A stretch of 64,000 nt of DNA from Vicinamibacteria bacterium. GTDB lineage: Bacteria; Acidobacteriota; Vicinamibacteria; Marinacidobacterales; Marinacidobacteraceae. Made by a program: the position numbers and the translations under genes. Position 1 is the stretch's first letter; each line of letters begins with the position of its first letter. The DNA lies in contig OZ241322.1 of assembly GCA_965199715.1 (NCBI GenBank), positions 544,001 through 608,000 on the forward strand, given 5' to 3'. Shown piece after piece: positions 3,007 through 58,928 of the stretch. The notes beneath the pieces are model-generated. The model did not search any database. It worked only from the letters and a program-made list of their open reading frames with translations, and was not told the origin of the DNA.

Positions 3007-3734
3007 TCCGCGTCGACCGCCTCGGCCATCGCAGCGAGCGTCGGGAACACGAAGTCGGTCTCGGGGAGCGTCTCGAGCGGCGCGGTCGCGCCCCAGCTTC
3101 CCCCTTCGGAGAGACGCTGGCGATCGATCCAGGCATTGCGGAGGCCGAGGCGTTTCGCCGGAACGTGGTCGTGGTGGAGGCTCTGCGCGGTGTGGAGCAC
3201 GTCTTCCGGCCCGAATCCGAAGTCGGATTGAAGTCGCTCCAGCAGGAAACGGAAGTTCGTCAGCGACGGTTTGTAATCGCCGATGTCCTCGGCCGTCCAG
3301 ACCGCATCGAACCGTGCTCCCAGCTTCCGCTGCGAGGCGGCGATGCCGTCCCGGTGGACGTTGGAGAGGATGACCAGCCGGTAGCGCCGGGCCAGACGGC
3401 GGAGCGCGTCGGCGGTGTCCGGGAAGGCCGGCCACTGCCCGACCGAGGCTCCGAACGCCGCATCCAGCGCCGGAGTCGTCTCCATGGCGAAGGTCCCGGC
3501 GAGATCCCGGTGGACGCGCTCAAGGAGCTCGGGATACCGGAGGCCGGGGTTCGCGGCCTCGTTCCGCCCCTCGACTTCGGCGAACGCCCGGAGCGCGATG
3601 TCCCGCGTCACCTCGACCGCGCCGCTGCGCATCAGGAGCGGCTGGAGAGCGTCCCAGATGCCGGTCTCCCAGTCGATGAGGGTGCCGTAGCAATCGAACG
3701 TCAGAATCCGGAAGTCGGAGAGGCGCGGCTTCAT
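2934..3734 (-). CDS. HAD-superfamily hydrolase (haloacid dehalogenase type II-like)
   Basis: TFDCYGTLIDWE, ILSNV, DYKPS, HTAQSLHHDHVPA motifs; ATG at 3734 overlaps upstream stop (ATGA). Confidence 0.88.
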   Translation of the reverse strand: MKPRLSDFRILTFDCYGTLIDWETGIWDALQPLLMRSGAVEVTRDIALRAFAEVEGRNEAANPGLRYPELLERVHRDLAGTFAMETTPALDAAFGASVGQWPAFPDTADALRRLARRYRLVILSNVHRDGIAASQRKLGARFDAVWTAEDIGDYKPSLTNFRFLLERLQSDFGFGPEDVLHTAQSLHHDHVPAKRLGLRNAWIDRQRLSEGGSWGATAPLETLPETDFVFPTLAAMAEAVDADQRPGATGGGSSSQKSSGAGFGTG

Positions 3735-4699: not shown

Positions 4700-4726
4700 G
4701 TTGCGATTGTCTCCCGAAAGCTCAAG

Positions 4727-4750
4727 CCATAGTTATGATATTATGGGTAT
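4727..4750 (+). promoter_or_regulatory. AT-rich -10 box and probable autoregulatory operator of the TA pair
   Basis: CCATA-N10-TATGG inverted repeat (4727-4746); TATTAT at 4739-4744, 6 nt before ATG 4751. Confidence 0.5.
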
Positions 4751-4966
4751 ATGCCAAACCGGAAGGTAACCTTCAGCCTCGACGAGCGAACCGCGAGCCG
4801 CATCGGGGCGCTGGCCGACGAGCTCGGGATCGCCCGCAGCGCCGTCGTTCGGGAGGCCGTGGCGTTCTATCGGAAACACGCCGATCAGGTCAGCGAAGAG
4901 GAGCGCGACGAGCGCGTGCGCGCCTTTCGGAAGTTCCTCCGCGACGCGTCCGACAAGCCATCATGA
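4751..4966 (+). CDS. Ribbon-helix-helix (CopG-like) antitoxin
   Basis: KVTFSLDE...ARSAVVREAV pattern; ATGA-coupled to a PIN gene. Confidence 0.8.
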   Translation: MPNRKVTFSLDERTASRIGALADELGIARSAVVREAVAFYRKHADQVSEEERDERVRAFRKFLRDASDKPS

Positions 4967-5367
4967 TCGTTCTGGATACTTCCGTCCTTGTGGACGCGCT
5001 CTCGGGTTCAAGGTCGCTGGCCACTACCTTCGCGAAGGTCCTCGCGACTGGCGAGCGCCTGCGGCTGCCCGCTCCCGTCCTCTACGAGTGGCTGTGCGGC
5101 CAGCGGACCGTGCCCGAGCTCGCGCTCCAGCGGGTGCTCTTCCCGGACGAGCGCACGCTGGCGTTCGGGCCGGTTGAAGCGCGGGTTGCCGCCGATCTTC
5201 ACCTCAGCGTCGCCGGGCTCGGCGAGCGGCAGGCGGCCATCGCGGCGTGCGCGCTCACCCGGGAGGGGCAGCTCTGGACCACGCGGCAACCGGACTTCGC
5301 GGAAATTCCCGGGCTCGCGCTCTTCCGGCCGGCGCCCCCCGGCAACGGAGCACCGGAACCGCGCTAG
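4963..5367 (+). CDS. vapC: PIN-domain (VapC-like) toxin, possibly inactive
   Basis: MIVLDTSVLVD, VLYEW, AIAACA, DFAEIPGL; third acidic residue appears absent. Confidence 0.75.
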   Translation: MIVLDTSVLVDALSGSRSLATTFAKVLATGERLRLPAPVLYEWLCGQRTVPELALQRVLFPDERTLAFGPVEARVAADLHLSVAGLGERQAAIAACALTREGQLWTTRQPDFAEIPGLALFRPAPPGNGAPEPR

Positions 5368-5393
5368 CATCGCTCGCCCATCAGGAGGCGACC

Positions 5394-7526
5394 ATGAGAA
5401 TCCTGCTCGTCCCGGGCGCTCTGCTGCTGGCGTTGGCCGGCTGCGGCGGGGGCCTCGACTACCCGTATTCCGACAAGGGAGACGTCACCGAGGACATGCA
5501 CGGCGTCACGATTCCCGATCCCTACCGGTGGCTCGAGGACGACCACGACCCCGAGGTTCTGGAATGGGTGGACGCCCAGAACGAAGTCACCCGCGAGTAC
5601 CTCGACGCGCTCCCCGCCCGGGAAGCGCTTCTGGGCCGCCTGACCGAGCTCCGCGACTACGCCCGCCAGAGCGCGCCGTTCCGCTGGGGCGACCGGTGGT
5701 TCCTTCGGGCGAACGACGGCCTGCAGGATCAGGACGTGCTCTACCGGCTGACCGACCCCGACCAGCCGCAGTCCGAATGGGAGGTGCTGCTGGATCCGAA
5801 CCGGCTCTCGGAGGACGGCACCGTCAGCCTCGAGACGACCGCCTTCACCGAGGACGGGTCACTGATGGCCTATGGGCTCGGGCAGTCCGGTTCCGACTGG
5901 CGCGAGTTCCACGTCATGGACGCGGGGACCGGCGAGAAGCTGGACGACCACCTCCGCTGGATCAAGTTCTCCGGCGCGGCGTGGACCCACGACAACGGCG
6001 GCTTCCTGTACAGCCGCTATCCCGAGCCGGATCCCGACGCCGCGCAGGGCGGCGTGAACCGGAACCAGACCGTCTGGTACCACCGGCTCGGCACGCCGCA
6101 GGACAGCGACGAGATCGTGTACTCCCGTCCCGACCAACCGGACTGGCTCACCGGGGCGCAGGTCTCGGACGACGGTCGCTACGCCATCTTCGACATCCAG
6201 GAAGGAACGGACCACCGGAGCCGTATCCACGTGCTGGACCTCAAGGACGCCGCCAGCCCGGACTTCAGCGGCGAGGTGAACCCGCTGCTCGACGAGTTCG
6301 ACGCCGCCTACGATTTCCTCGGCAACGACGGCCCGGTCTTCTACTTCCTCACGAACCTCGACGCCCCGCGCTACCGGGTGATCGCCTTGGACCTCCGGCG
6401 GCCCGACCCGGCGCACTTCCGCGAGGTCGTGGCCGAGGGGCGGGAGACGCTTCTCGGGGCGCGCATGTTCGGAGATCGCTTCTTGCTGTCGTACCTCACA
6501 GACGCCAGCAGCCGTCTCGCCGTGCACGCGCTCGACGGCACTTTCGAGCGTGACGTGCCGCTGCCCGGCATCGGCTCGGTGGATCAGGTCAGCGGCAAGC
6601 GGAACGACCCGACGATGCACTTCGTGTTCTCGTCGTTCCTGTTCCCGCCGTCCGTGTACCGCTACGACTTCGAGACCGGCGAGGCGGACCTCGAGTGGGA
6701 GCCGGACATCCCCTTCGACCGGGAAGCGTTCGAGACGAATCAGGTGTTCTTCGCCTCGGCGGACGGAACCCAGATCCCCATGTTCCTGACCCACCGGAAG
6801 GACCTGTCCCGCGACGGGGACAACCCCACGCTGCTCTATGGCTACGGCGGGTTCAACATCAGCCTGACGCCGGGATTCAATCCGGCGAACCTCGTATTCC
6901 TCGAACACGGCGGCGTGTACGCCCAGGCGAACCTGCGGGGTGGAGGCGAGTACGGCGAGGAGTGGCACAACGCCGGGCGGCTGCTGAACAAGCAGAACGT
7001 GTTCGACGACTTCATCGCGGCGGCCGAGTTCCTCATCCACGACTCGGTCACGCAGCCCTCACGGCTCGCGATCGCGGGCGGCTCCAACGGCGGGCTGCTG
7101 GTGGGCGCGGTGCTGAACCAGCGACCCGAGCTCTTCGGCGCGGCGCTTCCGGCCGTGGGAGTGATGGACATGCTGCGCTTCCACCGATTCACGATCGGCT
7201 GGGCGTGGATCTCCGACTACGGCGATCCCGAGGACGCCGAGATGTTCGAGGTCCTCCATGCGTACTCGCCGTACCACAACATTGCGCCGTCAGAGACTTT
7301 TCCGCCGGTTCTCGTGACCACCGCCGATCACGACGATCGGGTCGCCCCGGGGCACTCCTTCAAGTACGCCGCCCGGCTTCAGGAAGTCCACGGCGGCGGT
7401 CCTGCCCCGATCCTGATCCGCATCCAGAAGAGCGCCGGCCACGGTTCCGGCATGCCGGTCTCGATGCGGCTGGCGCTGGACGCCGACCGGTTCGCGTTCC
7501 TCTTCCACAGCCTGCGCATGGACTGA
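5394..7526 (+). CDS. Prolyl oligopeptidase (S9A), predicted lipoprotein
   Basis: DPYRWLED, GYGGF, GGSNGGLL, DHDDRV, AGHG; lipobox LALAGC; AGGAGG RBS. Confidence 0.93.
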   Translation: MRILLVPGALLLALAGCGGGLDYPYSDKGDVTEDMHGVTIPDPYRWLEDDHDPEVLEWVDAQNEVTREYLDALPAREALLGRLTELRDYARQSAPFRWGDRWFLRANDGLQDQDVLYRLTDPDQPQSEWEVLLDPNRLSEDGTVSLETTAFTEDGSLMAYGLGQSGSDWREFHVMDAGTGEKLDDHLRWIKFSGAAWTHDNGGFLYSRYPEPDPDAAQGGVNRNQTVWYHRLGTPQDSDEIVYSRPDQPDWLTGAQVSDDGRYAIFDIQEGTDHRSRIHVLDLKDAASPDFSGEVNPLLDEFDAAYDFLGNDGPVFYFLTNLDAPRYRVIALDLRRPDPAHFREVVAEGRETLLGARMFGDRFLLSYLTDASSRLAVHALDGTFERDVPLPGIGSVDQVSGKRNDPTMHFVFSSFLFPPSVYRYDFETGEADLEWEPDIPFDREAFETNQVFFASADGTQIPMFLTHRKDLSRDGDNPTLLYGYGGFNISLTPGFNPANLVFLEHGGVYAQANLRGGGEYGEEWHNAGRLLNKQNVFDDFIAAAEFLIHDSVTQPSRLAIAGGSNGGLLVGAVLNQRPELFGAALPAVGVMDMLRFHRFTIGWAWISDYGDPEDAEMFEVLHAYSPYHNIAPSETFPPVLVTTADHDDRVAPGHSFKYAARLQEVHGGGPAPILIRIQKSAGHGSGMPVSMRLALDADRFAFLFHSLRMD

Positions 7527-7598
7527 CGAACACAGAATCTGCGCGCTTCGCACTCAAATAAAGCTGCGGTGCATCTCGATATATGTTCGCGGCGCGCC

Positions 7599-7627
7599 TT
7601 GACTTTTTTCCGGCGATGGCCTAGTGT
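7599..7627 (+). promoter_or_regulatory. Sigma70-type promoter of groESL
   Basis: TTGACT-N17-TAGTGT. Confidence 0.6.
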
Positions 7628-7768
7628 TCGCGCCGTCTGGAGCCCGGTCTTCGCCCCCAAGGACCGAAACGGGCATGCGGCCTTCCCCAGTCGGAAGGAT
7701 CGTCCGGGCGGTTCGTATTCACGTGCGCTGGCGGCGTACGTTTCGCGAGAGAGGAGACCCATTCCGCG

Positions 7769-9738
<1,970 letters not shown>

Positions 9739-24718: not shown

Positions 24719-25567
24719 TCATGCCGGCCCCCCGAAGCGCCGCTCGCACTCCATCGGCGACTCGTACCCCAGCGCCGAGCGCCGACGCCGCGGGTCGCGC
24801 CACCCCTCGATGAACGCGAACGCCTCACGCCGCGCCGCCTCCGGGTCCGCCAGCGGAACCACCTCCAGCAGCTCGCACTCCAGCGTCGCGAAGAACGACT
24901 CCGCCATCGCGTTGTCGTAGCAGTCCCCCGCCGACCCCATCGACGGACGCACCCCCGCCCGCCGGCACAACGCCCCGAACGCCGCCGACGCGCACTGGCT
25001 CCCCTGGTCCGAGTGGCGGACCGCTTCCGTGGGACGCCGCCGCGCTGCCGCCATCTCCAGCGCGTCCAGCACCAGCGACGAGAACAGCCGCAGCCTCATC
25101 GCCCGGCCCACCACCCGCCGGCTGAAGGCGTCCACCACCGCCGCCAGGCACATCGTCCCTCTCCCCGTAGGGACATACGTCACGTCCGCCACCCACGGCC
25201 GGTTCGGCCCCTCCGCCCGGAAGTCCCGGTCCACGAGGTCCGGCGCCGGACGAGCCGCCGCCCCCCGCACCGTCGTGATCTCCCGCTTCCGCCGCGACGC
25301 GCCCCGAAGCCCCAGCGCCCGCATCAGCCGCGCCGCCCGCTTCCGACTCGCCCGCTCCCCCCGCGCCTGAAGCTCCGCGTGGACTCGCGGCGCCCCGTAC
25401 GCCTCCCGGTTGTCCCGTTGGATCGCGCCGATCTCCTCCTTCAACGCCGCGTCCCCGAGCGCCCGCGCCGACGGCTCCCGGTCCAGCGAGGCGTGGAACC
25501 CGCTGCGGGAGACCTCCAGCACGCGGGCCGTCGTCGCGGTCGGATACACGGCCTGGCGCGCCTTCAT
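24719..25567 (-). CDS. IS3 transposase OrfB (DDE), eroded motifs
   Basis: YGAPRV, WVADVTY, HSDQGSQ, DNAMAESFF. Confidence 0.88.
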   Translation of the reverse strand: MKARQAVYPTATTARVLEVSRSGFHASLDREPSARALGDAALKEEIGAIQRDNREAYGAPRVHAELQARGERASRKRAARLMRALGLRGASRRKREITTVRGAAARPAPDLVDRDFRAEGPNRPWVADVTYVPTGRGTMCLAAVVDAFSRRVVGRAMRLRLFSSLVLDALEMAAARRRPTEAVRHSDQGSQCASAAFGALCRRAGVRPSMGSAGDCYDNAMAESFFATLECELLEVVPLADPEAARREAFAFIEGWRDPRRRRSALGYESPMECERRFGGPA

Positions 25568-25872
25568 GAACCTCCATCCTCGGAGATGGTCTCCCGGGCG
25601 AACCAGGCCGCGGCTTTTTTCAGGATCTCCAGCTCCAGCGCCTGCTGGGCGACCTTCCGGCGCAGGGCGCGGTTCTCCTCGCGCTCCGCCCGCGTCCAGC
25701 CCGCGGCGTCGCGGCCCTCAGCCGCGTCCGCCGCCCGCACCCAGTCGCGGATGGTCCCCGCCGTCGGCTCGAACTCCCGCGCCAGAGCCTCCGGACTCCG
25801 GCCCGAACGCGCCAGCTCCACCAGCCGCGCCCGGTGCTCCGCCGCGTACCGCGGCCGCTTCTTCGTGCTCAT
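25564..25872 (-). CDS. IS3 transposase OrfA (HTH)
   Basis: RYAAEHRARLVEL, LELEILKKAAAWFARE; CTGAAAAAAGCC -1 frameshift signal near 25614-25621 leads into the orfB frame. Confidence 0.9.
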   Translation of the reverse strand: MSTKKRPRYAAEHRARLVELARSGRSPEALAREFEPTAGTIRDWVRAADAAEGRDAAGWTRAEREENRALRRKVAQQALELEILKKAAAWFARETISEDGGS

Positions 25873-26062
25873 CGGGGACTCCTCCTCCAAAGAAGTTAGG
25901 CGTCCACGAAACCGGGGCAACTCCAGTGGGGTAAAGAAGGGCCCTCAGGGCGTGCCGGGGAAGACTCCAAGCGTCGCGGCGACGATCCTCAAATAGAGAG
26001 TCCTCGTCGCCCCGGGCTGAGCCGTCTTGTCCCCTGCCCGACCCTCGGCTACTGTCGCCGGC

Positions 26063-28004: not shown

Positions 28005-29463
28005 CGCGGGGCCAGCGCTCCACCACCACCTTGGTCTGGGTGTAGAATTCCACCGCGTGCGCGCCTTGGGCGTGCAGGTCGCCGAAGAAGCTGCCGCGCC
28101 AGCCGCTGAACGGGAAGAACGCCATCGGCGCCGCCACCCCGACGTTGATCCCGACGTTGCCGGTGAGCACTTCGCGCCGGAACCGCCGGGCGGTGCGGCC
28201 GTCGCCGGTGAACACGGAAGCCATGTTCCCGTAGTCGCCGCCGTTCACGAAGCGGATCGCCTCCTCCACGTCCGGCGCGCGGATCACGCCGAGCACCGGG
28301 CCGAAAATTTCGGTCCCGGCCACGTCGCCGTCGGGGGACAGGTCGTCCAGCACCGTGGGGCCGACGAAGTACCCCCGCAGGCCCTCGACCCGGAAGCCGC
28401 GCCCGTCCACGGCCGCCTCGGCCCCCTCGCCTTCCACGGCCGCGCCGATCAGCGACTCGATCCGGTCCCGGCTCTCGCCCCGGATCACCGGCCCCATGTC
28501 CACCGAGTCGTCGAGACCGGAACCCACCACGCGGGTGCGGGCGGCCTCGGCGATCGCGTCGCGGAAGGGCTCGTGGGCGTCCCCGACCGTCACCGCCAGC
28601 GAGGCGGCGAGGCAACGCTGGCCGGCGCAGCCGAAGGCGCTGTCCGCCACCGCGCTCACGACCGAATCCACCTCGGCGTCGGGAAGGATCACCACCGGAT
28701 TCTTGGCGCCGCCCTGGCACTGGACCCGCTTCCCGTTCGCCGCGGCCCGCGCATAGACGGCGCGCGCCACGTCGGAGGAGCCGACGAAGCTGACCGCCGC
28801 CACGTCGGGATGGTCGAGCAGCGACTCCACGGCCGCCCGCCCGCCGTGCACGAGCTGCACCACCCCCCGGGGCAGATCCGCCTCCTCGAGCAGCCGCGCG
28901 ACGAACTCCATCGTGAGCGGGGTTTTCTCGGAAGGCTTGAGCACGACCGCGTTCCCGCAGGCCACCGCGTACGGCAGGAACCAGAACGGGATCATCGCCG
29001 GGAAGTTGAACGGCGCGATCACCGCCACGACGCCCACCGGCTGGCGCACCATGAACTCATCGATCCCGCGGGCGACGTCCTCGAGCATGCGCCCTTGCAT
29101 CAGCGTCGGGATCCCGCAGGCCACCTCCACGTTCTCGACGGCGCGGCGCACCTCGCCCCGGGACTCGGCGAGGGTCTTTCCGCACTCGCGGGTCACCAGG
29201 CGCGCGATCTCCTCGAAGTCCCGCTCGAGGAGCGCCTTGAGTCGGAACAGCGGCTGCACCCGGTCGGTCGGGGGCGCGTCCCGCCATGCGGGGAGCGCGG
29301 CGGAAGCGGCCTCGACCGCCCGCCCCACGTCCTCGGGACCGCCGAGCGGCGTGCGGGCGAGCAGGCGCCCGGTGGCGGGATCCCGGACGTCGAGGGCGTC
29401 GGTGGCCGCGGACGGCGTCCAGCCTCCGGAGATGTAGTTGCGAAGCGTCCGAATCCGGGACAT
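27985..29463 (-). CDS. mmsA: CoA-acylating methylmalonate-semialdehyde dehydrogenase
   Basis: [40 protein letters not shown]. Confidence 0.9.
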
Positions 29464-29489
29464 GGGCCACGCATAGGATACGCGGCGGC

Positions 29490-31745
29490 ATGACTTTCTT
29501 GCTCCTCGCCCTCGCGTCCGCGTCGGCTCCCGAGGTCGGCTTGCTGCCCCAAGGCGCCGACGCTCCGATCGTGGACGGGATCGTGGACGACGCCGCTTGG
29601 GCGGGGCTGGATCCGTTCACCGGCTTCATCCAGCAGGAGCCGGACAACGGGGCGCCGGCGACCGAGCGCACCGAGGTGCGGCTGCTGCTGTCCGAGACCG
29701 CGCTCTACGTCGGGATCATCGCGTTCGACCGCGATCCCGACGGCGTGCTGGTCTCCGAGAGCCGGCGCGACGGAGACCTGAACGAATCGGACTCGGTGCA
29801 GATTGTCCTCGACACGTTCAACGACAGCCAGAACGGGTTCCTCTTCGGCACGAATCCCGAGGGGATCGAGTACGACGGCCAGATCGCCGGCGAGGGCGCC
29901 ACCGGCGGCTACAACCCGAGACCCGGGCAACGCGGCTCGCAGCGCGGCGGGGTCACCGGTTTCAACGCGAACTGGGACGGCGACTGGACCGTGCGGTCGA
30001 GGACCACGGCCCGCGGCTGGGAGACCGAGTTCGCGATCCCGCTGCGGACGCTGCGGTACCAGCCGGGAGACGAGCGCACCTGGGGCCTGAACGTGATGCG
30101 GAACATCCGGCGCAAGAACGAGCAGTCGTTCCTCGCGCCGATCCCCCGCGGCTCGAACATCTACCGCGTCTCGCTCGCCCGGAGGGTCCACGGCCTGCGG
30201 CTGCCGGGCCGGCGCGACGTCAAGGTGACCCCGTTCGCGCTCGGCGACGCGACCCGGAACGCGCTCGCGGTCAGCGAGGAAGCCCGCTCCAACGAGGGGT
30301 TCGACGCGGGGCTCGACGTCAAGTGGGGAGTCACCCCCAACCTGACGATCGATCTCACCGCGAACACCGACTTCGCTCAGGTGGAGGCCGACGACCAGCA
30401 GGTCAACCTGACCCGGTTCCCGCTCTTCTTCCCCGAGAAGCGGCCGTTCTTCCTCGAGAACGCCTCGACCTTCCAGTTCGGGGCGCCGCAGGAGGTGGAC
30501 CTCTTCTTCAGCCGGCGCATCGGGCTGAACGCCGGGCAGGCGGTCCCGATCCTCGGCGGCGCCCGGCTGTCCGGGAAGATGGGCGCGTTCAACATCGGCC
30601 TGATGAACATGCAGACCGGCGCCGCGTTCGACGCCGAGACCGGCGCGCTCTCGCTCGCCGCGAACAACTACGGGGTGGCGCGGATCCAGCGCGAGGTGGG
30701 CCGCTCCAACTTCGGCGGCATCCTCGTGAACCGGCAGGCGAACGGCGACTGGGCCGAGGGGGACGACTGGAACCGGGCGTTCGGGGCGGATGCGGCGATC
30801 CAGTTGGCCGAGAACACCCGCTTCTTCAGCTTCCTCGCGAAGACCAGCTCGCCGGGCGCAACCGACGGCGGCGATGTCGCCGGGCGGGCGTTCCTGAACC
30901 ACATCGGACCGCTCCACCAGGGCCACGTCGGGTTCACGCAGGTCGGCGAAAACTTCAATCCCGAGGTCGGCTTCGTGCCGCGCCGGGGCTATCGGAAGTA
31001 CCAGTGGCGCTATTTCCTCGACTACCAGCCCACGGGGATCGAGGCCCTGTCGTGGTTGCGGCGGTACTCCCCGCACGTCACCTGGAACGCCTTCTACGAC
31101 TTCGACGGCCAGATCCAGTCAGGGCGCGGACACTTCCACTTCATCGAGTTCCAGCCCAACTCGGGAGGGCGCTTCGGGTACTGGTTCGACACCATGGTGG
31201 ACGCGCCGACCCGGAACTTCCCCGTGTTCTCCGGCGCGGACGGGAACGAGGTGGTCATCGCGCCGGGCGAGCACCGCTGGCTCGTCCACAACGTGAACTA
31301 CATCGGCAACGCGAGCGCCCGCTTCTACCCGACGATCTACTGCCAGACCGGCGGGTTCTACGACGGGAACCAGCGGGGCTGCAACGTGAGCGTGAACGGC
31401 CGCGTGGGCGCCGTTTTCCAAGCGAGCGTCGGCTGGCGCCGGGACGTCGTCGAACTCCCCCACGGCGAGTTCACGAGCGACCTCGTGCCGATCCGGCTGA
31501 ACTACTCGTTCACGCCGCTGCGCCGGCTCGAGGCGCTCATCCAGTACAACAGCCAGACGGCCTCGGTCTCGTCGAACGTCCGCCTCGTGATGCTCGACCG
31601 GAGCGGAACGGGCCTGTTCCTCGTGTACAACGACATCCGGAACACGGCCTCGTTCGACCGGTTCGACTACGAGACGGGCTTGGAGTATCCGAACGTGCTC
31701 GGGCGCTCGTTCATCGTCAAGTACACCCGGCTGTTCGACTTCTGA
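29490..31745 (+). CDS. DUF5916 / CBM9-like exported (probable outer-membrane) protein
   Basis: [41 protein letters not shown]-terminal Phe. Confidence 0.82.
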
Positions 31746-50824: not shown

Positions 50825-52233
50825 ATGACTCCGGAGGCGGCGCCGCGTCCCTTCGGGGGCGGCCTGTTCACCGGCGACTTCCTCGTTCGCGAGGCGGCCG
50901 CGGCCCCGGTTCCCGACGCGTTCGAGAGCGGACTGCGGGCCGTCTTTTCGGGTTTTCCGACCGACCGGGAGCCGAACGAGAGCCAGACCGAGGACGACCT
51001 GATCTGGCCGGTCCTGAAACTGCTCGGTTGGGACTCGAGCCTGCGGCAACAGAACCTCGCCCCGAAAGGCGACCGCCAGGTCCCCGACGGCCTCCTCTTC
51101 ACGGACGCGGCCGCCAAGGGGGACGCCAACGCGCTGGCGGAGTGGGAGCGCTGCGCGGTCGGGCTGGCTATCGTGGAGTCGAAGCGGTGGAAGGCGCCCC
51201 TCGACGGGACCGCGACCGCTCGCACCGCCGGGCGCCGCCGGTCGGCGATACATCAACTACAGCGAGCTCAGCGTCCAGCACCTCGGCTCCATCTACGAGC
51301 GGTTGCTGGAGCAAGAGCTGGTCCGGGACGGCGCACGGGTCGCCCTGCGCCTGAATCCTTACGCCCGGAGGGGGTCCGGCAGCTACTTCACGCCCCCCGA
51401 GCTCGTCCGGCTCGCGCTCCGGGAGACGGTCGGCCCGCTGGCGCAGCAGGGTCTCGACCGATTCGCGGACGCCGTCGCCGAGCTTGCGGAGCAGGGCCGG
51501 AGCGGAAGTGAGGCGATCGCCGCCCTGCGCGACGCGGATCCGGCGGAAGGCATGCTGCGTCTGCGAATCTGCGATCCGGCCATGGGATCCGGGCACTTCC
51601 TCGTCGGCCTCGTGGATTGGCTCGCGGACCGGGTGATCGCGGCGATGGCGGAAGCCGAGGCCGCCGTCCCCGGGTACGTGTCCTCGCTGGCCGAACGCAT
51701 CCGCGACGCGCGCTTCACGATCGTGACGAGCGCCAGGAGGCAAGGCTGGGACATCGACCCGGAGGGGCTGAACGACCGGCGCCTGGCGCGGCGCATCGTG
51801 CTCAAGCGCTGCGTGTACGGCGTGGACAGCAATCCGATGGCCGTGGAACTGAGCAAGGTGTCGCTCTGGCTCCACACCTTCACCGCCGGGGGGCCGCGCA
51901 GTTTCCTGGACCAACACGTCAAGTGCGGCGATCTCCCACGACCTCGAGGGATTCGCCCGTGACCTCGGGCACGTGGACGCGGCCGGCGCGGTCCATCCGC
52001 CGTTCGCGTGGGACGACGACTGGCGGCTCCATCTCCGGGCGAAGCTCGACGCGGCGTTCTTCCACCTCTACGGCGTGACCGATCCAGACGACATGAACTA
52101 CGTCTGGTCCACCTTCCCGATCGTGGAGAAGAACGAGGTCGAGGCTTACGGACACTATCTGTCGCGCGACCTCTGCCTCGAGTACATGAACGCGCTGGCC
52201 GCGGGACGGCCGGATGCGGTTCCGCATGGCTGA
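50825..52233 (+). pseudogene. Fragmented type IIG (Eco57I-like) restriction-modification gene
   Basis: Three frames: VPDGLLF...IVESKRW; INYSELSVQHLGSIYERLLE, GSYFTP, DPAMGSGHFL, YGVD; RAKLDAAFFHLYG tail; no NPPY/W motif. Confidence 0.85.
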
Positions 52234-53212
52234 GCGCCGCCGCATCGTCACCGTCGGCAACGCGCTCGTGGACGCGATCGCGCGGATCCCCGACGAGCGG
52301 CTCGCCGCGGTCGGCTATCCCAAGGGGCACATGAGCCTCGTCAGCGGCGAGGAGCAGGCGACCGCGCTGGCGCGGCTCGAGGGAACCCGCGTCGGGCTCG
52401 CGCCCGGCGGATCCGCGGCCAACACCGCCGTGGGAGCGGCCCGGCTCGGCGCCGAGGCGGCGTTCTTCGGCCGGGTGGCCGACGACGCGACCGGCCGGCT
52501 GTTCCGCGACGAGCTCGTGCGGGCCGGGGTCCGACCGGGGTCGCGGCTGGTCGTGGCCGGGGCCGAGCGGACCGGCGTGAGTCTGGTCATGACGACTCCC
52601 GACGGGCAACGCACGATGCTGACCAACCTCGGCGCAGCCCCCGACATCGGCCCGGGCGCCTTCGACGCCGAGCTGGTGCGGGACGCCCGCTTCCTCTACT
52701 TCGAGGGATACCTGCTGACCAACCCCGTGGCCCGCCAGACGGTTGTCGAGACATCCCGCCGGGCGGCCGCGGACGGGGTGACCGTGGCGCTTTCCGCATC
52801 CGACGGATTCGTGATGGACGTGGCCGGAGATGTCGTGCGGGAGCTGCTGGACGGACCGGTGAGCCTCCTGTTCGCGAATCTGGACGAGGCCCGGCACCTG
52901 ACCGGCCTCGTCGATCCCGCCCGGGTCGCCGCGAGCCTCGCCGAGTGGGACGGCCTCACCGCGCTCACGCTCGGCGGCGACGGCTCGATCCTGATCCGGG
53001 GCGCGGAGCGCATCCGGATTCCGCCGGTCCGCGTCCCGGTCGTCGATACGAGCGGGGCCGGGGATCTCTACGCCGCCGGACTGCTCGCGGGCCTCGCCCG
53101 GGGGTCGTCGCTCGAGGAGGCGGGGCGGCTCGCGTCACGCGCCGCGGCGCAGGTCGTGACCGTGCACGGGCCGAGGCTGCCGGAGGGCTTCAGAGTCGGA
53201 ACAAACGGGTGA
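52226..53212 (+). CDS. PfkB-family carbohydrate/adenosine kinase
   Basis: GNALVD, GGSAANT, FEGYL, DTSGAGDLYAAG. Confidence 0.92.
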   Translation: MAERRRIVTVGNALVDAIARIPDERLAAVGYPKGHMSLVSGEEQATALARLEGTRVGLAPGGSAANTAVGAARLGAEAAFFGRVADDATGRLFRDELVRAGVRPGSRLVVAGAERTGVSLVMTTPDGQRTMLTNLGAAPDIGPGAFDAELVRDARFLYFEGYLLTNPVARQTVVETSRRAAADGVTVALSASDGFVMDVAGDVVRELLDGPVSLLFANLDEARHLTGLVDPARVAASLAEWDGLTALTLGGDGSILIRGAERIRIPPVRVPVVDTSGAGDLYAAGLLAGLARGSSLEEAGRLASRAAAQVVTVHGPRLPEGFRVGTNG

Positions 53213-55439
53213 ACTTCACGACCAGCGCGCGGTCGGTGAGCCCGCTGAGCCCGTCGTCGCCGTCCCGGTTGCTGCTGAACACGACGAAGAGGTCGCTGCC
53301 CGGCGAGTACTCCCAGCGGAAGCGCACGTTCGCCGAGAAGAGCTCCGCCGCCGAGTTGTACTGGACCAGCGCGCCCACGAAGCTGCGCGGCGACACGGTG
53401 AACGTGCCCCGCAGCCGCGAGACCAGCGCGTCCACGTCTCCCTGGGGAGTCCGAATCCAATTGAAGCTCAGGTTCGGCTCGAGCGAGAAGCGCTCGTTGA
53501 CGTCGGTGCGCCCCCAATAGCTGGCCTCCCTCCGGGTTCCGCCGAAGAAGTCGCCCCACTCGTAGCGGGCGTATCCCGAGACCGGGCGGTGGCTTCCCAT
53601 CCACACGCGAAGACTGGTGCGGTGGAACCGGTAGTCCCCGGCGAGGACCGCCACGTCCTCGGAGAGGTCGAAGCCCTCGAGCAGCCGCTCCTCGGTCAGG
53701 CTGTGCGTGAACACGAGGCGATCGCTCGTCTCGAGCACGGCCCGGGCCTCGAGGTTGTACTCGCGGGTCTCGAGTTCGCCGTCGAGGCGGTCGTAGTTGT
53801 TCGCCTCCACCTTGAACTCGAACTGGCGGATCCGGTCGATCCCCCGAGGCCGCGGCGCCAACTGGAACGAACCCCCCGTCTTCGTGAAGTCCCGGCGCCG
53901 CGCGAACCCCATCTCCGGGTTGAAGTCCTCCCCCAGGTACATCCGCTCCGCCGTCACGTCGATCAGGTCCGTGTCGTAACGGAACTGACCCATGTAGCTC
54001 GCCGCCCGGTGCGACAGCTCGCGCTCCGTGTCCCGCGTCGCCATGTAGAACGCGTTCACGTTCACGTGCTCCGTCGGGTTGAACACCCCGTCCATCCCCA
54101 CCAGCGAGTTCGTCCCCGTCTCCGCCGCGTTCACGTTCCGGTGCGTCGCGATCAGCCCCACGCTCGAGCGCGCGAACACGTCCCGCTTCACCCGCACCGC
54201 GCTGTAGTTCGTCGCCGAGGCGTCCACCCCCGAAGCCTCCCCCGTCTGGATGTTCATCAGCCCCAACTGGTACGCGCCCACCCGACCGTGCACCCGCGCG
54301 CCCCCCGCGATCGGCACCGAGCGCCCGCCCGACAGCCCGATCGTCCGGCTGAAGAACGGGATCGGCGCGTCCGAAGGCCCCTGCCCCCCGAACGCCCGCG
54401 TCTGACGCCCCCCGAAGTCGAACACCCCCTGCCCCTCGAGGAAGAACTCCCGCTTCTCCGGGAAGAACAGGCTGAACCGCGACAGGTTCACCTGCGTCTC
54501 GTCGTCCTCCACCTGCGCGAAGTCCGTGTTCCACGTCAGGTCCGCCGTCAGCCCGTCCGTGATCCCGAACTTGAAGTCCGCCCCGAAGTCCCCCGACCAC
54601 TCGTTGTCCACCTCGTTCAGCGGCGCGTGGCTCTGCGACCCGATCGCGTACGGCTTGAACTCCATCCGGCGCGAACTCGGCGGGGCCTCCAGCCCCACCA
54701 GCGTCGCCGCGTTCGACAGCCGGATCAGCCCGTCGCGGTCGTAGGCTTGCGGCGTGGGGGTGAAGAACACCCGCTCGTTGCGGTGCTTGATGTTGCGCTG
54801 GAAATTGATCCCCCACGTCTGGGGGCCTCCGGCGGCGTAGCGCAGCGAACGGAACGGAATCCGGATCTCCAGCGTCCAGCCCCGCTCCGTGTCCCGGGTC
54901 TCGGACCACCAGACGGTGTTCCAGTCGCTGTTCGTGTTGCGCTCGTCGGTGACCTGCGCGTCGTACAGCGCCCCGAGCGGATTCGTGTGGAAGAGGAACC
55001 CGTTGCGTCCGTCGTGGAAGGTGTCGAGCACGAACTGGAAGCTGTCGTTCCAGCCGATCCGCATGTTGTCCCGGCGCATCTCGTTCGCGATCCGCCGCCC
55101 CCCGCCGGCCTCGTCCAGCTCGGCCGCGACGTAGAGGTTGTCCGCGTCGTAGAACACCCACACGCGGGTCTCCTCCGAAGCCGGCGCGCCCTCGTTCGGC
55201 TCCTGCTGAAGGAATCCCCCGGCGGCCGGGACCTCGTCGTACACCGGGTCGTCCAGCGCCCCGTCCACGTTCAGGGGCGCGGCGAGCCGGAACGCGCGCA
55301 GCGTGACGCTCCCGTCGGCTTCCCGGCTCACGGCCGCTTCCGGAAGCGCCCGGCCCGACGCGGCGGAAACGTCGCCGTCCTGGGCGCCGGCGTCGGTCAG
55401 GCCGGCGACCAGCGCGGCGGCCAGAAAGGCGCGGGACAT
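53190..55439 (-). CDS. DUF5916 / CBM9-like exported protein, tandem copy B
   Basis: [45 protein letters not shown]. Confidence 0.85.
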   Translation of the reverse strand: MSRAFLAAALVAGLTDAGAQDGDVSAASGRALPEAAVSREADGSVTLRAFRLAAPLNVDGALDDPVYDEVPAAGGFLQQEPNEGAPASEETRVWVFYDADNLYVAAELDEAGGGRRIANEMRRDNMRIGWNDSFQFVLDTFHDGRNGFLFHTNPLGALYDAQVTDERNTNSDWNTVWWSETRDTERGWTLEIRIPFRSLRYAAGGPQTWGINFQRNIKHRNERVFFTPTPQAYDRDGLIRLSNAATLVGLEAPPSSRRMEFKPYAIGSQSHAPLNEVDNEWSGDFGADFKFGITDGLTADLTWNTDFAQVEDDETQVNLSRFSLFFPEKREFFLEGQGVFDFGGRQTRAFGGQGPSDAPIPFFSRTIGLSGGRSVPIAGGARVHGRVGAYQLGLMNIQTGEASGVDASATNYSAVRVKRDVFARSSVGLIATHRNVNAAETGTNSLVGMDGVFNPTEHVNVNAFYMATRDTERELSHRAASYMGQFRYDTDLIDVTAERMYLGEDFNPEMGFARRRDFTKTGGSFQLAPRPRGIDRIRQFEFKVEANNYDRLDGELETREYNLEARAVLETSDRLVFTHSLTEERLLEGFDLSEDVAVLAGDYRFHRTSLRVWMGSHRPVSGYARYEWGDFFGGTRREASYWGRTDVNERFSLEPNLSFNWIRTPQGDVDALVSRLRGTFTVSPRSFVGALVQYNSAAELFSANVRFRWEYSPGSDLFVVFSSNRDGDDGLSGLTDRALVVKFTRLFRL
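53755..54731. repeat. ~977-bp skewed direct repeat, copy 1
   Basis: Matches 56036-57012 (offset 2281); one mismatch seen (54651 c vs 56932 a). Confidence 0.92.
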
Positions 55440-55470
55440 GGGCGTCCGCAGTCTAGCCCCGCAGCCCGCG

Positions 55471-57792
55471 TCAGAACCGGAACAGCCGGGTGAACTTGAC
55501 GACGAGCGTGCGGTCGGTCAGGCCGCTGAGCGCGTCGTCCCCGTCCCGGCTGCTGCTGAACACGACGAAGAGGTCGCTGCCGGGCGAGTACTCCCAGCGG
55601 AAGCGCACGTTCGCCGAGAAGAGCTCCGCCGCCGAGTTGTACTGGACCAGCGCGCCCACGAAGCTGCGCGGCGACACGGTGAACGTGGTGCGAAGGTAGG
55701 TCACCGTCGCCCTCACGTCGCCCGCCGGCACGGTGATCCAGTTGAGGCTGACGTTGGGCTCGAGGATGAGGCGGTTCCCGGCCGCGGCGCGCCCCATGTA
55801 GCTGACCTCGCGCCGGGTTCCGCCGAAGAAGTCGCCCCACTCGTAGCGCAGGAACCCCGACACCCGCCGGTGCGATCCCATCCGGAAGCGGACCCCGGTG
55901 CGGGCGAACCGGTAGTTCCCGGCGAGGACCGCCACGTCCTCGGAGAGGTCGAAGCCCTCTTGCAGCCGCTCCTCGGTGATCGTGTGGTCGAGGAAGATGC
56001 GGTCGCTGCTCTCGAAGATCGCGCGGGCGTCGAACTTGTACTCGCGGGTCTCGAGTTCGCCGTCGAGGCGGTCGTAGTTGTTCGCCTCCACCTTGAACTC
56101 GAACTGGCGGATCCGGTCGATCCCCCGAGGCCGCGGCGCCAACTGGAACGAACCCCCCGTCTTCGTGAAGTCCCGGCGCCGCGCGAACCCCATCTCCGGG
56201 TTGAAGTCCTCCCCCAGGTACATCCGCTCCGCCGTCACGTCGATCAGGTCCGTGTCGTAACGGAACTGACCCATGTAGCTCGCCGCCCGGTGCGACAGCT
56301 CGCGCTCCGTGTCCCGCGTCGCCATGTAGAACGCGTTCACGTTCACGTGCTCCGTCGGGTTGAACACCCCGTCCATCCCCACCAGCGAGTTCGTCCCCGT
56401 CTCCGCCGCGTTCACGTTCCGGTGCGTCGCGATCAGCCCCACGCTCGAGCGCGCGAACACGTCCCGCTTCACCCGCACCGCGCTGTAGTTCGTCGCCGAG
56501 GCGTCCACCCCCGAAGCCTCCCCCGTCTGGATGTTCATCAGCCCCAACTGGTACGCGCCCACCCGACCGTGCACCCGCGCGCCCCCCGCGATCGGCACCG
56601 AGCGCCCGCCCGACAGCCCGATCGTCCGGCTGAAGAACGGGATCGGCGCGTCCGAAGGCCCCTGCCCCCCGAACGCCCGCGTCTGACGCCCCCCGAAGTC
56701 GAACACCCCCTGCCCCTCGAGGAAGAACTCCCGCTTCTCCGGGAAGAACAGGCTGAACCGCGACAGGTTCACCTGCGTCTCGTCGTCCTCCACCTGCGCG
56801 AAGTCCGTGTTCCACGTCAGGTCCGCCGTCAGCCCGTCCGTGATCCCGAACTTGAAGTCCGCCCCGAAGTCCCCCGACCACTCGTTGTCCACCTCGTTCA
56901 GCGGCGCGTGGCTCTGCGACCCGATCGCGTAAGGCTTGAACTCCATCCGGCGCGAACTCGGCGGGGCCTCCAGCCCCACCAGCGTCGCCGCGTTCGACAG
57001 CCGGATCAGCCCATTGCGCCCGTAGGCCTGCGGAGTGGGGGTCAGGAAGGACTGCTCGTTGCGGTGCTTCAGCCGGCGGCGGAAATTGATCCCCCAGGTC
57101 TGGGCTCCTCCCGCCGGATAGCGGAGCGAACGGAACGGGATCCGCATCTCGACGGTCCAGCGGTCCTCGAGGCTGGACGCCTTCACCCGCCAGACGGTGT
57201 TCCAGTCGCTGTTCGTGTTGCGCTCGTCGGTGACCTGCGCGTCGTACAGCGCCCCGAGCGCGTTCGTGTGGAAGAGGAACCCGTTGCGTCCGTCGTGGAA
57301 CGTGTCGAGGATGACCGAGAAGCTGTCTCCCCAGTCGATGTTCCGCTGGTCGCGGCGCATCTCGTTGGCCATCCGGCGCTCGGGATAGTGGTCTTCGAGC
57401 TCCGCCGCCACGTACAGGCTGTCCGCGTCGTAGAAGACCCAGACCCGCGTCGCCTCCGAGGACGGCTCGCCCTCGTTCGGCTCCATCTGGGTGAATCCCT
57501 CGGCCGACGGCGCCTCGTCGTACACGGGATCGTCGAGCACGCCATCGACGGCGAGCGGTTCGGCGAGCCGGAACGCGCGCAGCGTGACGCTTCCGTCGGC
57601 CTCCCGGCTCACGGCCGCTTCCGGAAGCGGTCGGCTCGCGACCGAGGATGCGTCGCCGTCCTGCTGGTCGAGGGCGAGCCGACCGCCCTGCCCCGAGGCC
57701 GCCGGCGCGACGAGCGCGACGCCCAATGCGACCGCAGCGCCGCCTATTCGATGCCTGACCAATGAACCGCCCCGTATACCAAGCGCAAGCAT
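55471..57792 (-). CDS. DUF5916 / CBM9-like exported protein, tandem copy A; start uncertain
   Basis: Same motifs; colinear with copy B. Confidence 0.85.
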   Translation of the reverse strand: MLALGIRGGSLVRHRIGGAAVALGVALVAPAASGQGGRLALDQQDGDASSVASRPLPEAAVSREADGSVTLRAFRLAEPLAVDGVLDDPVYDEAPSAEGFTQMEPNEGEPSSEATRVWVFYDADSLYVAAELEDHYPERRMANEMRRDQRNIDWGDSFSVILDTFHDGRNGFLFHTNALGALYDAQVTDERNTNSDWNTVWRVKASSLEDRWTVEMRIPFRSLRYPAGGAQTWGINFRRRLKHRNEQSFLTPTPQAYGRNGLIRLSNAATLVGLEAPPSSRRMEFKPYAIGSQSHAPLNEVDNEWSGDFGADFKFGITDGLTADLTWNTDFAQVEDDETQVNLSRFSLFFPEKREFFLEGQGVFDFGGRQTRAFGGQGPSDAPIPFFSRTIGLSGGRSVPIAGGARVHGRVGAYQLGLMNIQTGEASGVDASATNYSAVRVKRDVFARSSVGLIATHRNVNAAETGTNSLVGMDGVFNPTEHVNVNAFYMATRDTERELSHRAASYMGQFRYDTDLIDVTAERMYLGEDFNPEMGFARRRDFTKTGGSFQLAPRPRGIDRIRQFEFKVEANNYDRLDGELETREYKFDARAIFESSDRIFLDHTITEERLQEGFDLSEDVAVLAGNYRFARTGVRFRMGSHRRVSGFLRYEWGDFFGGTRREVSYMGRAAAGNRLILEPNVSLNWITVPAGDVRATVTYLRTTFTVSPRSFVGALVQYNSAAELFSANVRFRWEYSPGSDLFVVFSSSRDGDDALSGLTDRTLVVKFTRLFRF
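56036..57012. repeat. ~977-bp skewed direct repeat, copy 2
   Basis: Matches 53755-54731; C-rich on + strand. Confidence 0.92.
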
Positions 57793-57845
57793 ACGCGAAA
57801 CGCCGGGCCGGAACCTCCGCGCCGCCGTTTCCGTTAGGGGTGGAC

Positions 57846-58928
57846 ATGAAGCGCACTCTGGTCATCCTGATCGCGGGCGCGGCCGTCGTCGGCAGCGCCG
57901 CGGTCGCCGCCAGCCTCCTCTCCGACTCCGAACCCACGGTCGCCGAGGCGGCCGCGGAGGAACCCGCCCCCACTCCGGTGAGCGTGGCCGCCGCCGGGGT
58001 CGGTCCGGTCGCCGTGCGCCTCGCGACCACTTCCGCGATCGAGGCGGAGCGCACCGCGCAGGTGCTTTCCGAGACCTCCGGCGTGGTCACCGGGATCCTC
58101 GTCGGCGAAGGCCAGCGGGTCGCCGAGGGGGCCGTCCTCGCCCACGTGGACGCGCGGGACCGCCGCCTCTCCTTCGAGCAGGCCGAGCTGCGGCTCTCGC
58201 GGGCGGAAGCCGAGCTCTCGCGCCAGCGGCGCGCTTTCGAGCAGGATCTGGTCGCCGAGTACGAATACGAGAAGGCCCGCTTCGACCGCGATCTCGCCGC
58301 CTCCGAACGGGAGACCGCCCGGCTGGAGCTCGAGCGGACCGAGATCCGGGCGCCCTTCGCCGGGACGATCACCGAGCTTGCGGTCGTGGCCGGAGCGCGG
58401 CTCGAGCCGGCGCAGCACCTGCTCACGCTCGCCGACTTCGACACCCTGATCGCGCGCCTCTACATCCCCGAGCGCGACGTCGCAGGCCTCGTGCCCGGCC
58501 AGCGCGCCCGGATCCACCCCGAATCCGATCCTCGGGGCGCGGGGCGCGACGGCGCGGTGCGCGAGATCGGCCCGGTCGTGGACCGCTCCACCGGGACCGT
58601 CAAGGTGACCGTGGCCATTCCGCACGGCGGCGGGGGCGCGGTGCGGCCCGGCTCGTTCGCCCGGGTGGTCATCGAGACCGGCGTGCGCGAGAACGCGGTG
58701 CTGACCCCGAAGCGGGCGGTGATGCGCGGCAACGGCCAGAGCCACGTGTTCGTGGTCGAGAACGGCCGCGCGGTCCGGCGCGACGTCACGCTCGGCGCGG
58801 AGATCGAGGGCCCCTCGGGCGCGCTGCTGGAAGTCGCCGGGGGACTCGCCGAGGGCGAGCAGGTCGTCGTCGCCGGACAGGGATCGCTCGCGCCCGGCGC
58901 GGCGGTCGAAGTCCTGAACGGCCTCTGA
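57846..58928 (+). CDS. RND efflux periplasmic adaptor
   Basis: IRAPFAGTI, VDRSTGTVKV, RPGSFARV, GLAEGEQVV. Confidence 0.9.
   Translation: MKRTLVILIAGAAVVGSAAVAASLLSDSEPTVAEAAAEEPAPTPVSVAAAGVGPVAVRLATTSAIEAERTAQVLSETSGVVTGILVGEGQRVAEGAVLAHVDARDRRLSFEQAELRLSRAEAELSRQRRAFEQDLVAEYEYEKARFDRDLAASERETARLELERTEIRAPFAGTITELAVVAGARLEPAQHLLTLADFDTLIARLYIPERDVAGLVPGQRARIHPESDPRGAGRDGAVREIGPVVDRSTGTVKVTVAIPHGGGGAVRPGSFARVVIETGVRENAVLTPKRAVMRGNGQSHVFVVENGRAVRRDVTLGAEIEGPSGALLEVAGGLAEGEQVVVAGQGSLAPGAAVEVLNGL

Follow-up and report, generated by a model that had tools for sequence, protein, structure and literature searches.

Repeats with intense nucleotide skew (GRINS), known from polyketide synthase genes of Streptomyces, are defined in PMC8256042 as duplicated segments of more than 500 bp and more than 80% identity whose mean GC and TA skew magnitudes exceed 0.15 in 150-nt windows, the two skews being correlated with an r of about 0.70. 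That source surveyed five phyla, without Acidobacteriota, and places GRINS outside Streptomyces mostly in transposases, so that they were already known from several phyla and gene families; it left their mechanism open in 2021, with transition-type tautomer errors discussed. Here we describe a related case in a Vicinamibacteria bacterium (assembly GCA_965199715.1): a 977-bp block shared by two tandem DUF5916 genes, here called A and B, in which the synonymous sites are overwhelmingly G on the coding strand. Both genes lie in a 64,000-nt stretch of contig OZ241322.1 (hereafter the window), which corresponds to positions 544001-608000 of contig 1 of a 2.66-Mb genome in two contigs, with a GC content of 71.5% and a completeness of 93%. 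Positions refer to the window unless a contig (C1 or C2) is named.

Other known systems also resemble this locus in part. Bacterial paralogs such as tuf and the rRNA genes undergo concerted evolution by gene conversion, and A and B resemble them as old duplicates that are identical over a bounded tract while their flanks diverge; to our knowledge, strand-skewed recoding has not been reported for concerted evolution of this type. GC-biased gene conversion (gBGC) in bacteria, reportedly described by Lassalle et al. in 2015, offers a second parallel as a recombination-linked fixation bias at synonymous sites, and A and T at two-fold sites are nearly purged from the block. However, G and C benefit equally from classical gBGC, which has no strand asymmetry, whereas here G replaces C on one strand.

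Identity and skew in two tandem DUF5916 genes

Genes A and B are arranged head to tail on the minus strand, and their blocks are identical at 976 of 977 nucleotides, with a single synonymous mismatch, as the first-pass annotation of this DNA had noted (Table 1). Outside the block, nucleotide identity varies from 58 to 100% per 50-nt bin, and the proteins, 86% identical overall, are 100% identical within the block and 75-76% identical in the flanks. Within the block, four-fold degenerate sites are mostly G, with G154 C18 T8 A0 in copy A (154/180, 86% G) and G153 C18 T9 A0 in copy B, compared with G117 C111 A8 T8 and G115 C123 A13 T10, respectively, outside it (48% G in the flanks). Genome-wide, these sites comprise 44.2% G, 47.5% C, 4.5% T and 3.8% A (1,528 open reading frames, ORFs), and 40-site windows have a mean G fraction of 0.444 (sd 0.102). 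The difference between the inside and the outside of the block is highly significant (Fisher p = 4e-16), as is the departure of the block from the genome rate of 0.444 (binomial, 2e-30). The longest runs of G at four-fold sites reach 32 in A and 30 in B. A run of 31 G-ending four-fold codons from MEFKPY (54665) to REFF had been noted before and assigned to copy B; all 31 are indeed present at 54665, but the copy is A as named here, and in the other copy the first of these codons ends in T. The homologous single DUF5916 gene elsewhere in the window (29286-31745) was said to use mixed codons, and it does: G takes up 0.48 of its four-fold sites and never more than 0.60 of a 40-site window.

The block also stands out in bulk composition. 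Its mean GC skew is -0.219 in A and -0.218 in B, whereas 600-nt windows of the genome have a standard deviation of 0.056 and only 87 of 26,555 reach a magnitude of 0.2. G occupies 0.58-0.70 of third codon positions within the block but 0.28-0.54 beyond it, and positions 1 and 2 undergo no comparable shift. When the edges of the skew were placed by a maximum-likelihood two-change-point fit, the resulting tracts were nested in the identity block, with 5' edges 2 nt apart and the 3' edge of the skew 77 nt inside. The boundaries of skew and identity match to this degree.

Lineage specificity and synonymous recoding

Homologs of the block lack the skew. In the aligned region, the best homologs of 29 of 29 relatives have four-fold G fractions of 0.32-0.49, compared with 0.87 here, and in 67 of 67 copies from the tandem arrays of 16 relatives no 40-site window exceeds 0.72 G, whereas A and B reach 0.95. 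The skew is therefore not a property of the DUF5916 family, and it is confined to the repeat, sparing the flanks and the homologs of relatives, as the first-pass annotation required of a skewed repeat. A homogenised tract (at least 150 bp with at least 93% identity between copies) was found in none of the 16 relatives' DUF5916 arrays; among the sampled arrays, homogenisation and skew co-occur, and do so in this genome only.

The recoding is synonymous. Amino-acid identity to six homologs from other genera is 0.77-0.80 in the block and 0.73-0.81 in the flanks, and at four-fold sites encoding the same amino acid as these homologs the block carries 53-70 changes from C to G and 2-6 from G to C, whereas the two directions are about equal in the flanks. 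Codon positions 1 and 2 of the block differ from a consensus of 28 homologs (at least 70% agreement, copies of at least 70% identity) by 52 changes, four of them C to G and six G to C. Swaps between amino acids with pyrimidine-ending and G-ending codons number two in each direction, and no skew-linked amino-acid change was seen in the block relative to this consensus. Two-fold sites are shifted towards GC, with T at 1 of 76 pyrimidine sites (10.7% genome-wide) and A at 0 of 34 purine sites (13.0% genome-wide). The purine share of four-fold sites climbs from 48% to 86%, a change that transitions by themselves would be unable to bring about.

Evidence for gene conversion

Trees of the flanks and of the block were calculated from 34 copies at least 64% identical to A, the other 36 of 70 copies lying below this limit. 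In the N-flank tree, A falls inside an eight-row set of 'copy-1' orthologs from other genera, with a support of 95 in the Shimodaira-Hasegawa-like approximate likelihood ratio test (SH-aLRT), and B lies outside it; the C-flank tree unites B with two orthologs (SH-aLRT 98). In the block tree, A equals B and is placed weakly (SH-aLRT 85) beside the orthologs joined by the N-flank of B. A clade of A and B is rejected on the joined flanks by the approximately unbiased (AU) test (p = 0.017), and the amino-acid identity between the flanks of A and B is as low as that to orthologs from other genera (0.73-0.81). Because the flanks pair A and B with different orthologs, the block reads as a gene-conversion tract and not as a young duplication. 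The flanks are themselves mosaic, with short exact unskewed tracts.

Contigs from four public runs of two studies, placed on 52500-58500, provided independent data. Pieces within the block show 0 differences in the runs of both studies, and their depth is about twice that of the flank pieces (111-123 versus 48-74 in run X1, 97-104 versus 48-61 in X4, and 30-35 versus 7-16 in X5), although such depth cannot be taken as copy number. The contigs of the flanks break off 30 nt into the block, which presumably reflects the behaviour of a k-mer graph at a two-copy repeat. Contigs from RNA libraries cover parts of A and B, a coverage that does not demonstrate transcription. A patch in the 3' flank of B shows 11 clustered differences from the strain of X4 and X5; the B gene of the window equals its A gene at nine of these sites, and at the other two the B gene of the other strain has the letters of A, the two matching positions of A being swapped. 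We interpret this patch as the trace of recent conversion whose tract varies from strain to strain. Flank phylogeny and this strain-specific patch support the gene conversion proposed at first pass.

A second case in the DUF1552 pair

A pair of DUF1552 genes in the same genome, identical over 1,406 bp, presents a second case (Table 1). Each copy is the middle gene of one of two diverged cassettes (DUF1592-family, DUF1552, ankyrin) with unskewed neighbour genes and flanking regions that align at about 72-84%, and its four-fold sites comprise G216 C25 T22 A2 (82% G). The G/C ratio of 8.6 agrees with the T/A ratio of 11, and G/T (9.8) and C/A (12.5) equal the genome values (9.9 and 12.4), which looks like a single, approximately ninefold bias between complementary bases over an unchanged GC preference.

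Nucleotide identity of the pair and four-fold G were compared in nine genomes with both copies. The skew is high in pairs that are 97.5-100% identical (G 0.69-0.86) and low at 89-91% identity (0.51-0.59), and copies from two other families have fractions of 0.30-0.41. Near-identity of the pair together with skew is thus seen in most related genera. Some relatives also show T raised to 27-33% at two-fold pyrimidine sites, along with an excess of C to T and A to G among derived non-synonymous changes, counted over rows that are not independent; this is the G+T pattern of classical GRINS.

Other skewed blocks in the genome

The first-pass annotation had called for a genome scan for skewed repeats, and further blocks were found (DUF1552, DUF1156, insertion sequence (IS) elements and rpoC). 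The 87 skewed 600-nt windows (GC skew magnitude of at least 0.2) merge into 21 islands, ten of them mostly in repeats. While 2.03% of the bases belong to repeats (at least 500 bp and 85% identity), these contain 42 of the 87 skewed windows, an association whose significance is overstated by the overlap of the windows. Repeated islands comprise the DUF5916 and DUF1552 pairs, an IS3-family element and several copies of a DUF1156 methyltransferase gene. The two copies of the IS3-family element are 97.5% identical, with a mean GC skew of -0.22 and four-fold counts of G153 C23 T10 A3 in orfB, and copy 1 passes the thresholds of PMC8256042 as a formal GRINS. The five DUF1156/MethyltransfD12 copies are 90-96% identical and carry a coding-strand G skew in both orientations. 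Among the single-copy islands, a segment of rpoC has a four-fold G fraction of 0.74, compared with 0.39-0.46 in the three genomes of the same genus and 0.26-0.56 across all 16 relatives, and another island covers the 3' part of coaBC and an ORF for which no Pfam match was found.

A frame-free phase scan of third codon positions was added because our own ORF scorer missed genes; in it, the coding strand is G-rich in 31 regions and C-rich in five. An absolute rule of G on the coding strand was rejected, being countered by one genuine C-rich lipoprotein-like gene, whose sign is opposite to that of all other large islands and which is 36-38% homologous to the three genes that occupy the A/B slot in the same-genus genome G001.

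Comparison with GRINS and with diversification systems

In 150-nt windows with a step of 30, the block lies within the published GRINS definition in its length and identity, and in its mean GC skew magnitude (0.219 and 0.218), which compares with 0.073 (sd 0.023) in background 977-nt segments, 1.2% of which exceed 0.15. Its third-codon-position skew is likewise that of GRINS, as is its association with gene conversion, by the flank trees, the AU test on joined flanks and the strain-specific patch, though not by single flanks. Mean TA skew magnitude, in contrast, is 0.137 and 0.135, below 0.15 and at the background value of 0.145. Because 34% of random segments exceed 0.15, the TA threshold tells little at 71.5% GC; at four-fold sites, the ratio of T to A is 8:0 in the block and 22:2 in DUF1552, compared with 1.17:1 genome-wide. 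The block behaves like GRINS yet fails the formal TA-skew criterion on bulk sequence. Its earlier description as GRINS-like accordingly stands for a skewed synonymous repeat with conversion and not for the formal definition.

Set beside GRINS as PMC8256042 describes them, the block shares a near-identical duplicate of about 1 kb in one locus, an intense GC skew, abrupt edges, a third-position maximum, a functional-looking coded protein, a link to gene conversion and lineage specificity among homologous loci, and the same genome also contains single-copy skewed regions and skewed transposases. It differs in its background-level bulk TA skew and in a GC-TA correlation of only r = 0.19, in having one sign along its whole length (coding-strand G) with no amino-acid composition shift seen, and in its setting, namely outer-membrane-type DUF5916 and DUF1552 genes of an Acidobacteriota metagenome-assembled genome (MAG), not polyketide synthases or transposases. 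The tautomer errors discussed in that source also fit poorly, since a transition-only process would not give the observed rise in four-fold purines. A non-actinobacterial host had been anticipated, and the relatives indeed belong to class Vicinamibacteria of the Acidobacteriota, the closest public homologs coming from MAGs labelled Acidobacteriota, Vicinamibacteria or 'Candidatus Marinacidobacterium'. Within the paper library searched, the five publications using the phrase 'intense nucleotide skews' were entirely concerned with polyketide or non-ribosomal peptide synthases, and a broad literature search on conversion and skew found nothing.

As in diversity-generating retroelements and antigenic-variation cassettes, repeated segments occur here in probable surface-protein genes. 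Unlike those systems, both copies are full-length genes, and what they share is a conserved core instead of a variable region; adenine-specific differences, as in diversity-generating retroelements, are absent, the sole difference between the blocks being G/T. A retroelement was not supported, as no RVT_1 match to a reverse transcriptase was found in the genome (93% complete). The proposal of an undescribed diversification system was not upheld: the tract homogenises a conserved core and the divergent parts lie outside it, neither a skew-linked amino-acid change nor a reverse transcriptase was found, and GRINS had already been described from several phyla and gene families in PMC8256042.

Gene products and chromosomal setting

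Genes A and B match the Pfam family DUF5916 with E values of 1.3e-17 and 4.1e-18 (bit scores 64.2 and 65.9, cut-off 22.6), the match covering only the first 86 of 572 profile positions, and they match CBM9_1 with E values of 2.8e-4 and 7.8e-8, the latter alone being over the cut-off. An AlphaFold model of the product of gene A, built with 28 homologs (mean predicted local distance difference test, pLDDT, 75.7; predicted template modelling score, pTM, 0.75), has an N-terminal beta-sandwich followed by approximately 30 antiparallel strands. Among PDB folds, the N-terminal part resembles CBM9 modules (template modelling score, TM, on target 0.67-0.69), and the rest loosely resembles the barrels of LptD, TonB-dependent receptors and AlgE (TM 0.26-0.37). 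Model and fold matches agree with the DUF5916 family features found in A and B (Pfam score above cut-off, CBM9-like N-terminus, beta-barrel), and the two are probably outer-membrane or surface proteins, a statement at fold level only that accords with the surface protein pair suggested at first pass. Sequence searches of PDB and of NCBIfam with A and B gave no match, and no literature on DUF5916 was found. The most conserved stretch of the family, residues 306-354 of gene A (~54378-54524), with many invariant residues from D306 to E335, lies inside the identity block and is the lowest-confidence part of the model (pLDDT < 50); it may form a plug or loop within the predicted barrel.

The pfkB/acrA-like slot occupied by the pair (52214-58928) is variable within the genus, and the corresponding region of G001 (C1 436000-450000 of that genome) contains unrelated genes. 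None of ten queries with flanking genes of the window matched the array loci of any of the 16 relatives. The A/B pair may have moved into its present position, which would leave the skew unexplained. A 219-amino-acid ORF at 51303-51962 (plus strand), 1.2 kb from gene A, has weak matches to Eco57I and MmeI methyltransferases, both below the cut-off, and may be a gene remnant. Contig C2 has multi-kb repeats at both ends, with an inverted repeat within C2 at 1-7847 and a match to contig 1 at 304133-308411, and the break between the two contigs may be a repeat problem.

Table 1. Positions and properties of the genes, tracts and skewed blocks, and identity and skew of DUF1552 pairs in nine genomes (G000, genome of the window).
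Feature	Position	Strand	Description
Gene A	53190-55439	minus	ORF, 749 amino acids; signal-peptide-like N-terminus, CBM9-like domain, DUF5916 beta-barrel (predicted)
Gene B	55471-57792	minus	ORF, 773 amino acids; tandem paralog of A
Identity block, copy A	53755-54731	minus	Residues 237-562; interdomain linker and first half of barrel
Identity block, copy B	56036-57012	minus	Counterpart at 2281-nt offset
Sole block mismatch	54651 / 56932	minus	CCG in A, CCT in B; both Pro, synonymous
Skew tract A	53832-54729	minus	G at 152/171 four-fold sites, 119/253 outside
Skew tract B	56113-57010	minus	G at 151/171 four-fold sites, 117/270 outside
Second exact A/B tract	53302-53406 = 55583-55687	minus	105 nt, near 3' ends; GC skew +0.03
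Strain-variable patch, 3' flank of B	55924-55961	minus	11 clustered differences from strain of X4/X5 (study P2)
Third DUF5916 paralog	29286-31745	plus	Distant, 32% amino-acid identity to A; unskewed comparator
IS3-family element	24719-25920; second copy C1 1698192-1699370	minus	HTH_Tnp_1 ORF and rve integrase ORF
DUF1156/MethyltransfD12 5' parts	C1 757846-758925, 762751-763650; C2 8416-9360, 13006-14310, 304021-305100		Five copies
rpoC segment	C1 1812961-1813860		Single-copy, 900 bp skew island
coaBC island	C1 940636-942615		Single-copy, 2 kb; GC skew +0.26; coaBC 3' part and 188-amino-acid ORF
C-rich lipoprotein-like gene	C1 936059-937948	minus	(AP)n/(EP)n repeat; long C-rich run at four-fold sites
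G001 slot genes			Three tandem lipoprotein paralogs of unassigned family; 638, 751 and 731 amino acids; mutually 61-77% identical; unskewed
DUF1552 pair	C1 2122506-2123911 and 2128424-2129829		1,406 bp, 100% identical
DUF1552, G000			Pair identity 1.000; four-fold G 0.82
DUF1552, G002			Pair identity 0.991; four-fold G 0.69-0.70
DUF1552, G006			Pair identity 0.989; four-fold G 0.76-0.77
DUF1552, G003			Pair identity 0.988; four-fold G 0.72-0.73
DUF1552, G007			Pair identity 0.986; four-fold G 0.85-0.86
DUF1552, G014			Pair identity 0.980; four-fold G 0.84
DUF1552, G001			Pair identity 0.975; four-fold G 0.72-0.76
DUF1552, G004 (genus g2)			Pair identity 0.910; four-fold G 0.51-0.58
DUF1552, G010 (genus g2)			Pair identity 0.891; four-fold G 0.54-0.59

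Discussion

On balance, and with moderate confidence, we favour an origin of the 977-bp block as a gene-conversion tract between old tandem paralogs, in which a recombination- or repair-linked bias at the DNA level drove synonymous sites to G. Sequence of the B type probably overwrote the centre of A, and a fixation bias acting while the copies stayed identical would have driven the synonymous sites of the block to coding-strand G, with T over A at four-fold sites and a third-position GC content near 100%, leaving the protein unchanged. Such a bias would favour transversions between complementary bases, with C to G and A to T as the net direction, together with GC-ward changes, and its source would not be selection on translation, mRNA folding or protein. 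The outcome would be a homogenised barrel core, conserved in the family, between a CBM9-like domain and a C-terminal third that remain divergent. A recombination- or repair-linked bias fits best because the skew is nested in the identity tract with one shared edge, because skew is absent without conversion and lower in drifted copies, and because the two-fold sites have moved towards GC. Since single-copy skew islands exist, an intragenomic partner would not be required, and for these islands between-strain exchange could provide one.

Several observations weigh against this interpretation. Eleven of the 21 skew islands are single-copy, including the rpoC segment, which lacks an intragenomic repeat, and an IS256-type transposase (four-fold G201 C39), so that a partner within the genome is not needed for skew to arise. 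Conversely, the 105-nt exact tract near the 3' ends of A and B has conversion-like identity without skew, and skew is also missing from some long repeats, including two at 85-91% identity. Tolerant non-synonymous sites in the block are untouched, though a fixation bias should reach them, and no enzyme or pathway was identified for the bias. Taken singly, neither flank gives a significant AU test (p = 0.077 and 0.23), the relation between identity and skew in DUF1552 amounts to about one independent contrast, and the genome background comes from an ORF scorer of our own, which called 1,528 genes (74% of bases) and overlooked those of DUF1552. Finally, no contig spans both copies, and their tandem order rests on the assembly.

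The single-copy islands, among them the genome-specific rpoC segment and the transposase, would be more readily accommodated if skew came first and conversion second, with a local process skewing one copy before transfer to its paralog and identity arising as a by-product, the order proposed in the discussion of PMC8256042. We consider this order unlikely. Had some 90 of 180 four-fold sites been recoded in a single copy, its homology to the partner would have fallen before the transfer; a random conversion tract would rarely begin within 2 nt of a skew edge, and the lower skew of drifted DUF1552 copies would also speak against this order.

A foreign origin, in which the centres of both genes were exchanged for a skewed homologous stretch of a mobile element or of another organism, appears very improbable, since the amino-acid identity of the block to family homologs equals that of its flanks and the block groups, albeit weakly, with the orthologs joined by the N-flank of B. 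The genome has no third copy, and no skewed donor copy was present among the sampled relatives; we also know of no genome whose normal codon usage has 86% G at four-fold sites. A foreign source would nevertheless be in keeping with transposases as the strongest other G-skewed genes, with the variable slot and its unrelated tandem lipoprotein genes in G001, and with the fact that A and B resemble genes from other genera (72-80%) more closely than the homolog within their own genus (65%).

We give slightly less credence still to selection on synonymous codons, whether for translation speed, mRNA or DNA structure, or restriction-site avoidance. The change is strictly synonymous, and the DUF5916 and DUF1552 proteins are both predicted from sequence to be exported, as such selection might lead one to expect; but the skew is also found in transposases and a methylase, the orthologs work without it, and presumed highly expressed genes near rpoB, with four-fold G fractions of 0.33-0.47, have no G preference, on which ground translational selection was rejected. 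Least probable of all is an artefact of repeat collapse or polishing, or a very recent duplication: short-read polishing can homogenise repeats and no contig or read crosses both copies, but an artefact cannot create skew, the block pieces show zero differences at about doubled depth in two studies with flank contigs branching at the identity edges, the flanks have diverged and group with different orthologs, and eight other assemblies show this pattern again in their DUF1552 pairs.

Further candidate causes were tried and rejected. For G-quadruplexes or R-loops, the block contains 0 canonical motifs, and its G runs (42 per kb versus 22 in homologs) are as the skew itself gives. Avoidance of restriction sites or palindromes is not apparent, with 87.8 versus 76.3 four-nt and 20.0 versus 19.6 six-nt palindromes per kb in the block and in unskewed homologs, respectively. 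Nor is self-structure weakened, the mean minimum free energy per 150 nt being -61.9, compared with -57.3 in homologs and -63 to -67 in the flanks. The coding strand of the block contains two instances of the octamer GCTGGTGG, the Chi sequence of E. coli (54098-54105 and 54695-54702, and at the same places in B), one of them 29 nt from the 5' edge; with 209 occurrences in the genome, where it ranks 35th among 168 octamers of equal composition, it is not over-represented, and a Chi role was set aside. C:C mismatches escape MutS mismatch repair, but such escape, together with that of T:T, predicts G+A on one strand and not the observed G+T. A replication-strand effect was also considered; chromosome-wide skew is weak (magnitude of at most 0.045 per 50 kb) and irregular, and the origin and terminus could not be placed.

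The A/B locus represents a much simpler GRINS-like case, with two copies, one tract, sharp edges, synonymous-only change and unskewed orthologs, and the DUF1552 sister case offers several genera at different stages. Together they place limits on the cause: transversions are required, two-fold sites in this genome move GC-ward and not T-ward, and translation, mRNA folding, palindromes and G-quadruplexes are unsupported. For annotation, skewed blocks can mimic foreign DNA or assembly errors and distort analyses of codon usage and of the ratio of non-synonymous to synonymous substitutions (dN/dS).

More tentatively, this sponge- and coral-associated family of Vicinamibacteria may possess a recombination-coupled, strand-asymmetric, 'keto-biased' form of gene conversion, with C to G and A to T as its net result at synonymous sites, in which skew would build during exchange between paralogs or alleles and decay when exchange stops. 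If so, the two-copy DUF5916 and DUF1552 loci would record the GRINS life cycle as a natural time series, and GRINS would come from biased heteroduplex repair rather than from transition-type tautomer errors.

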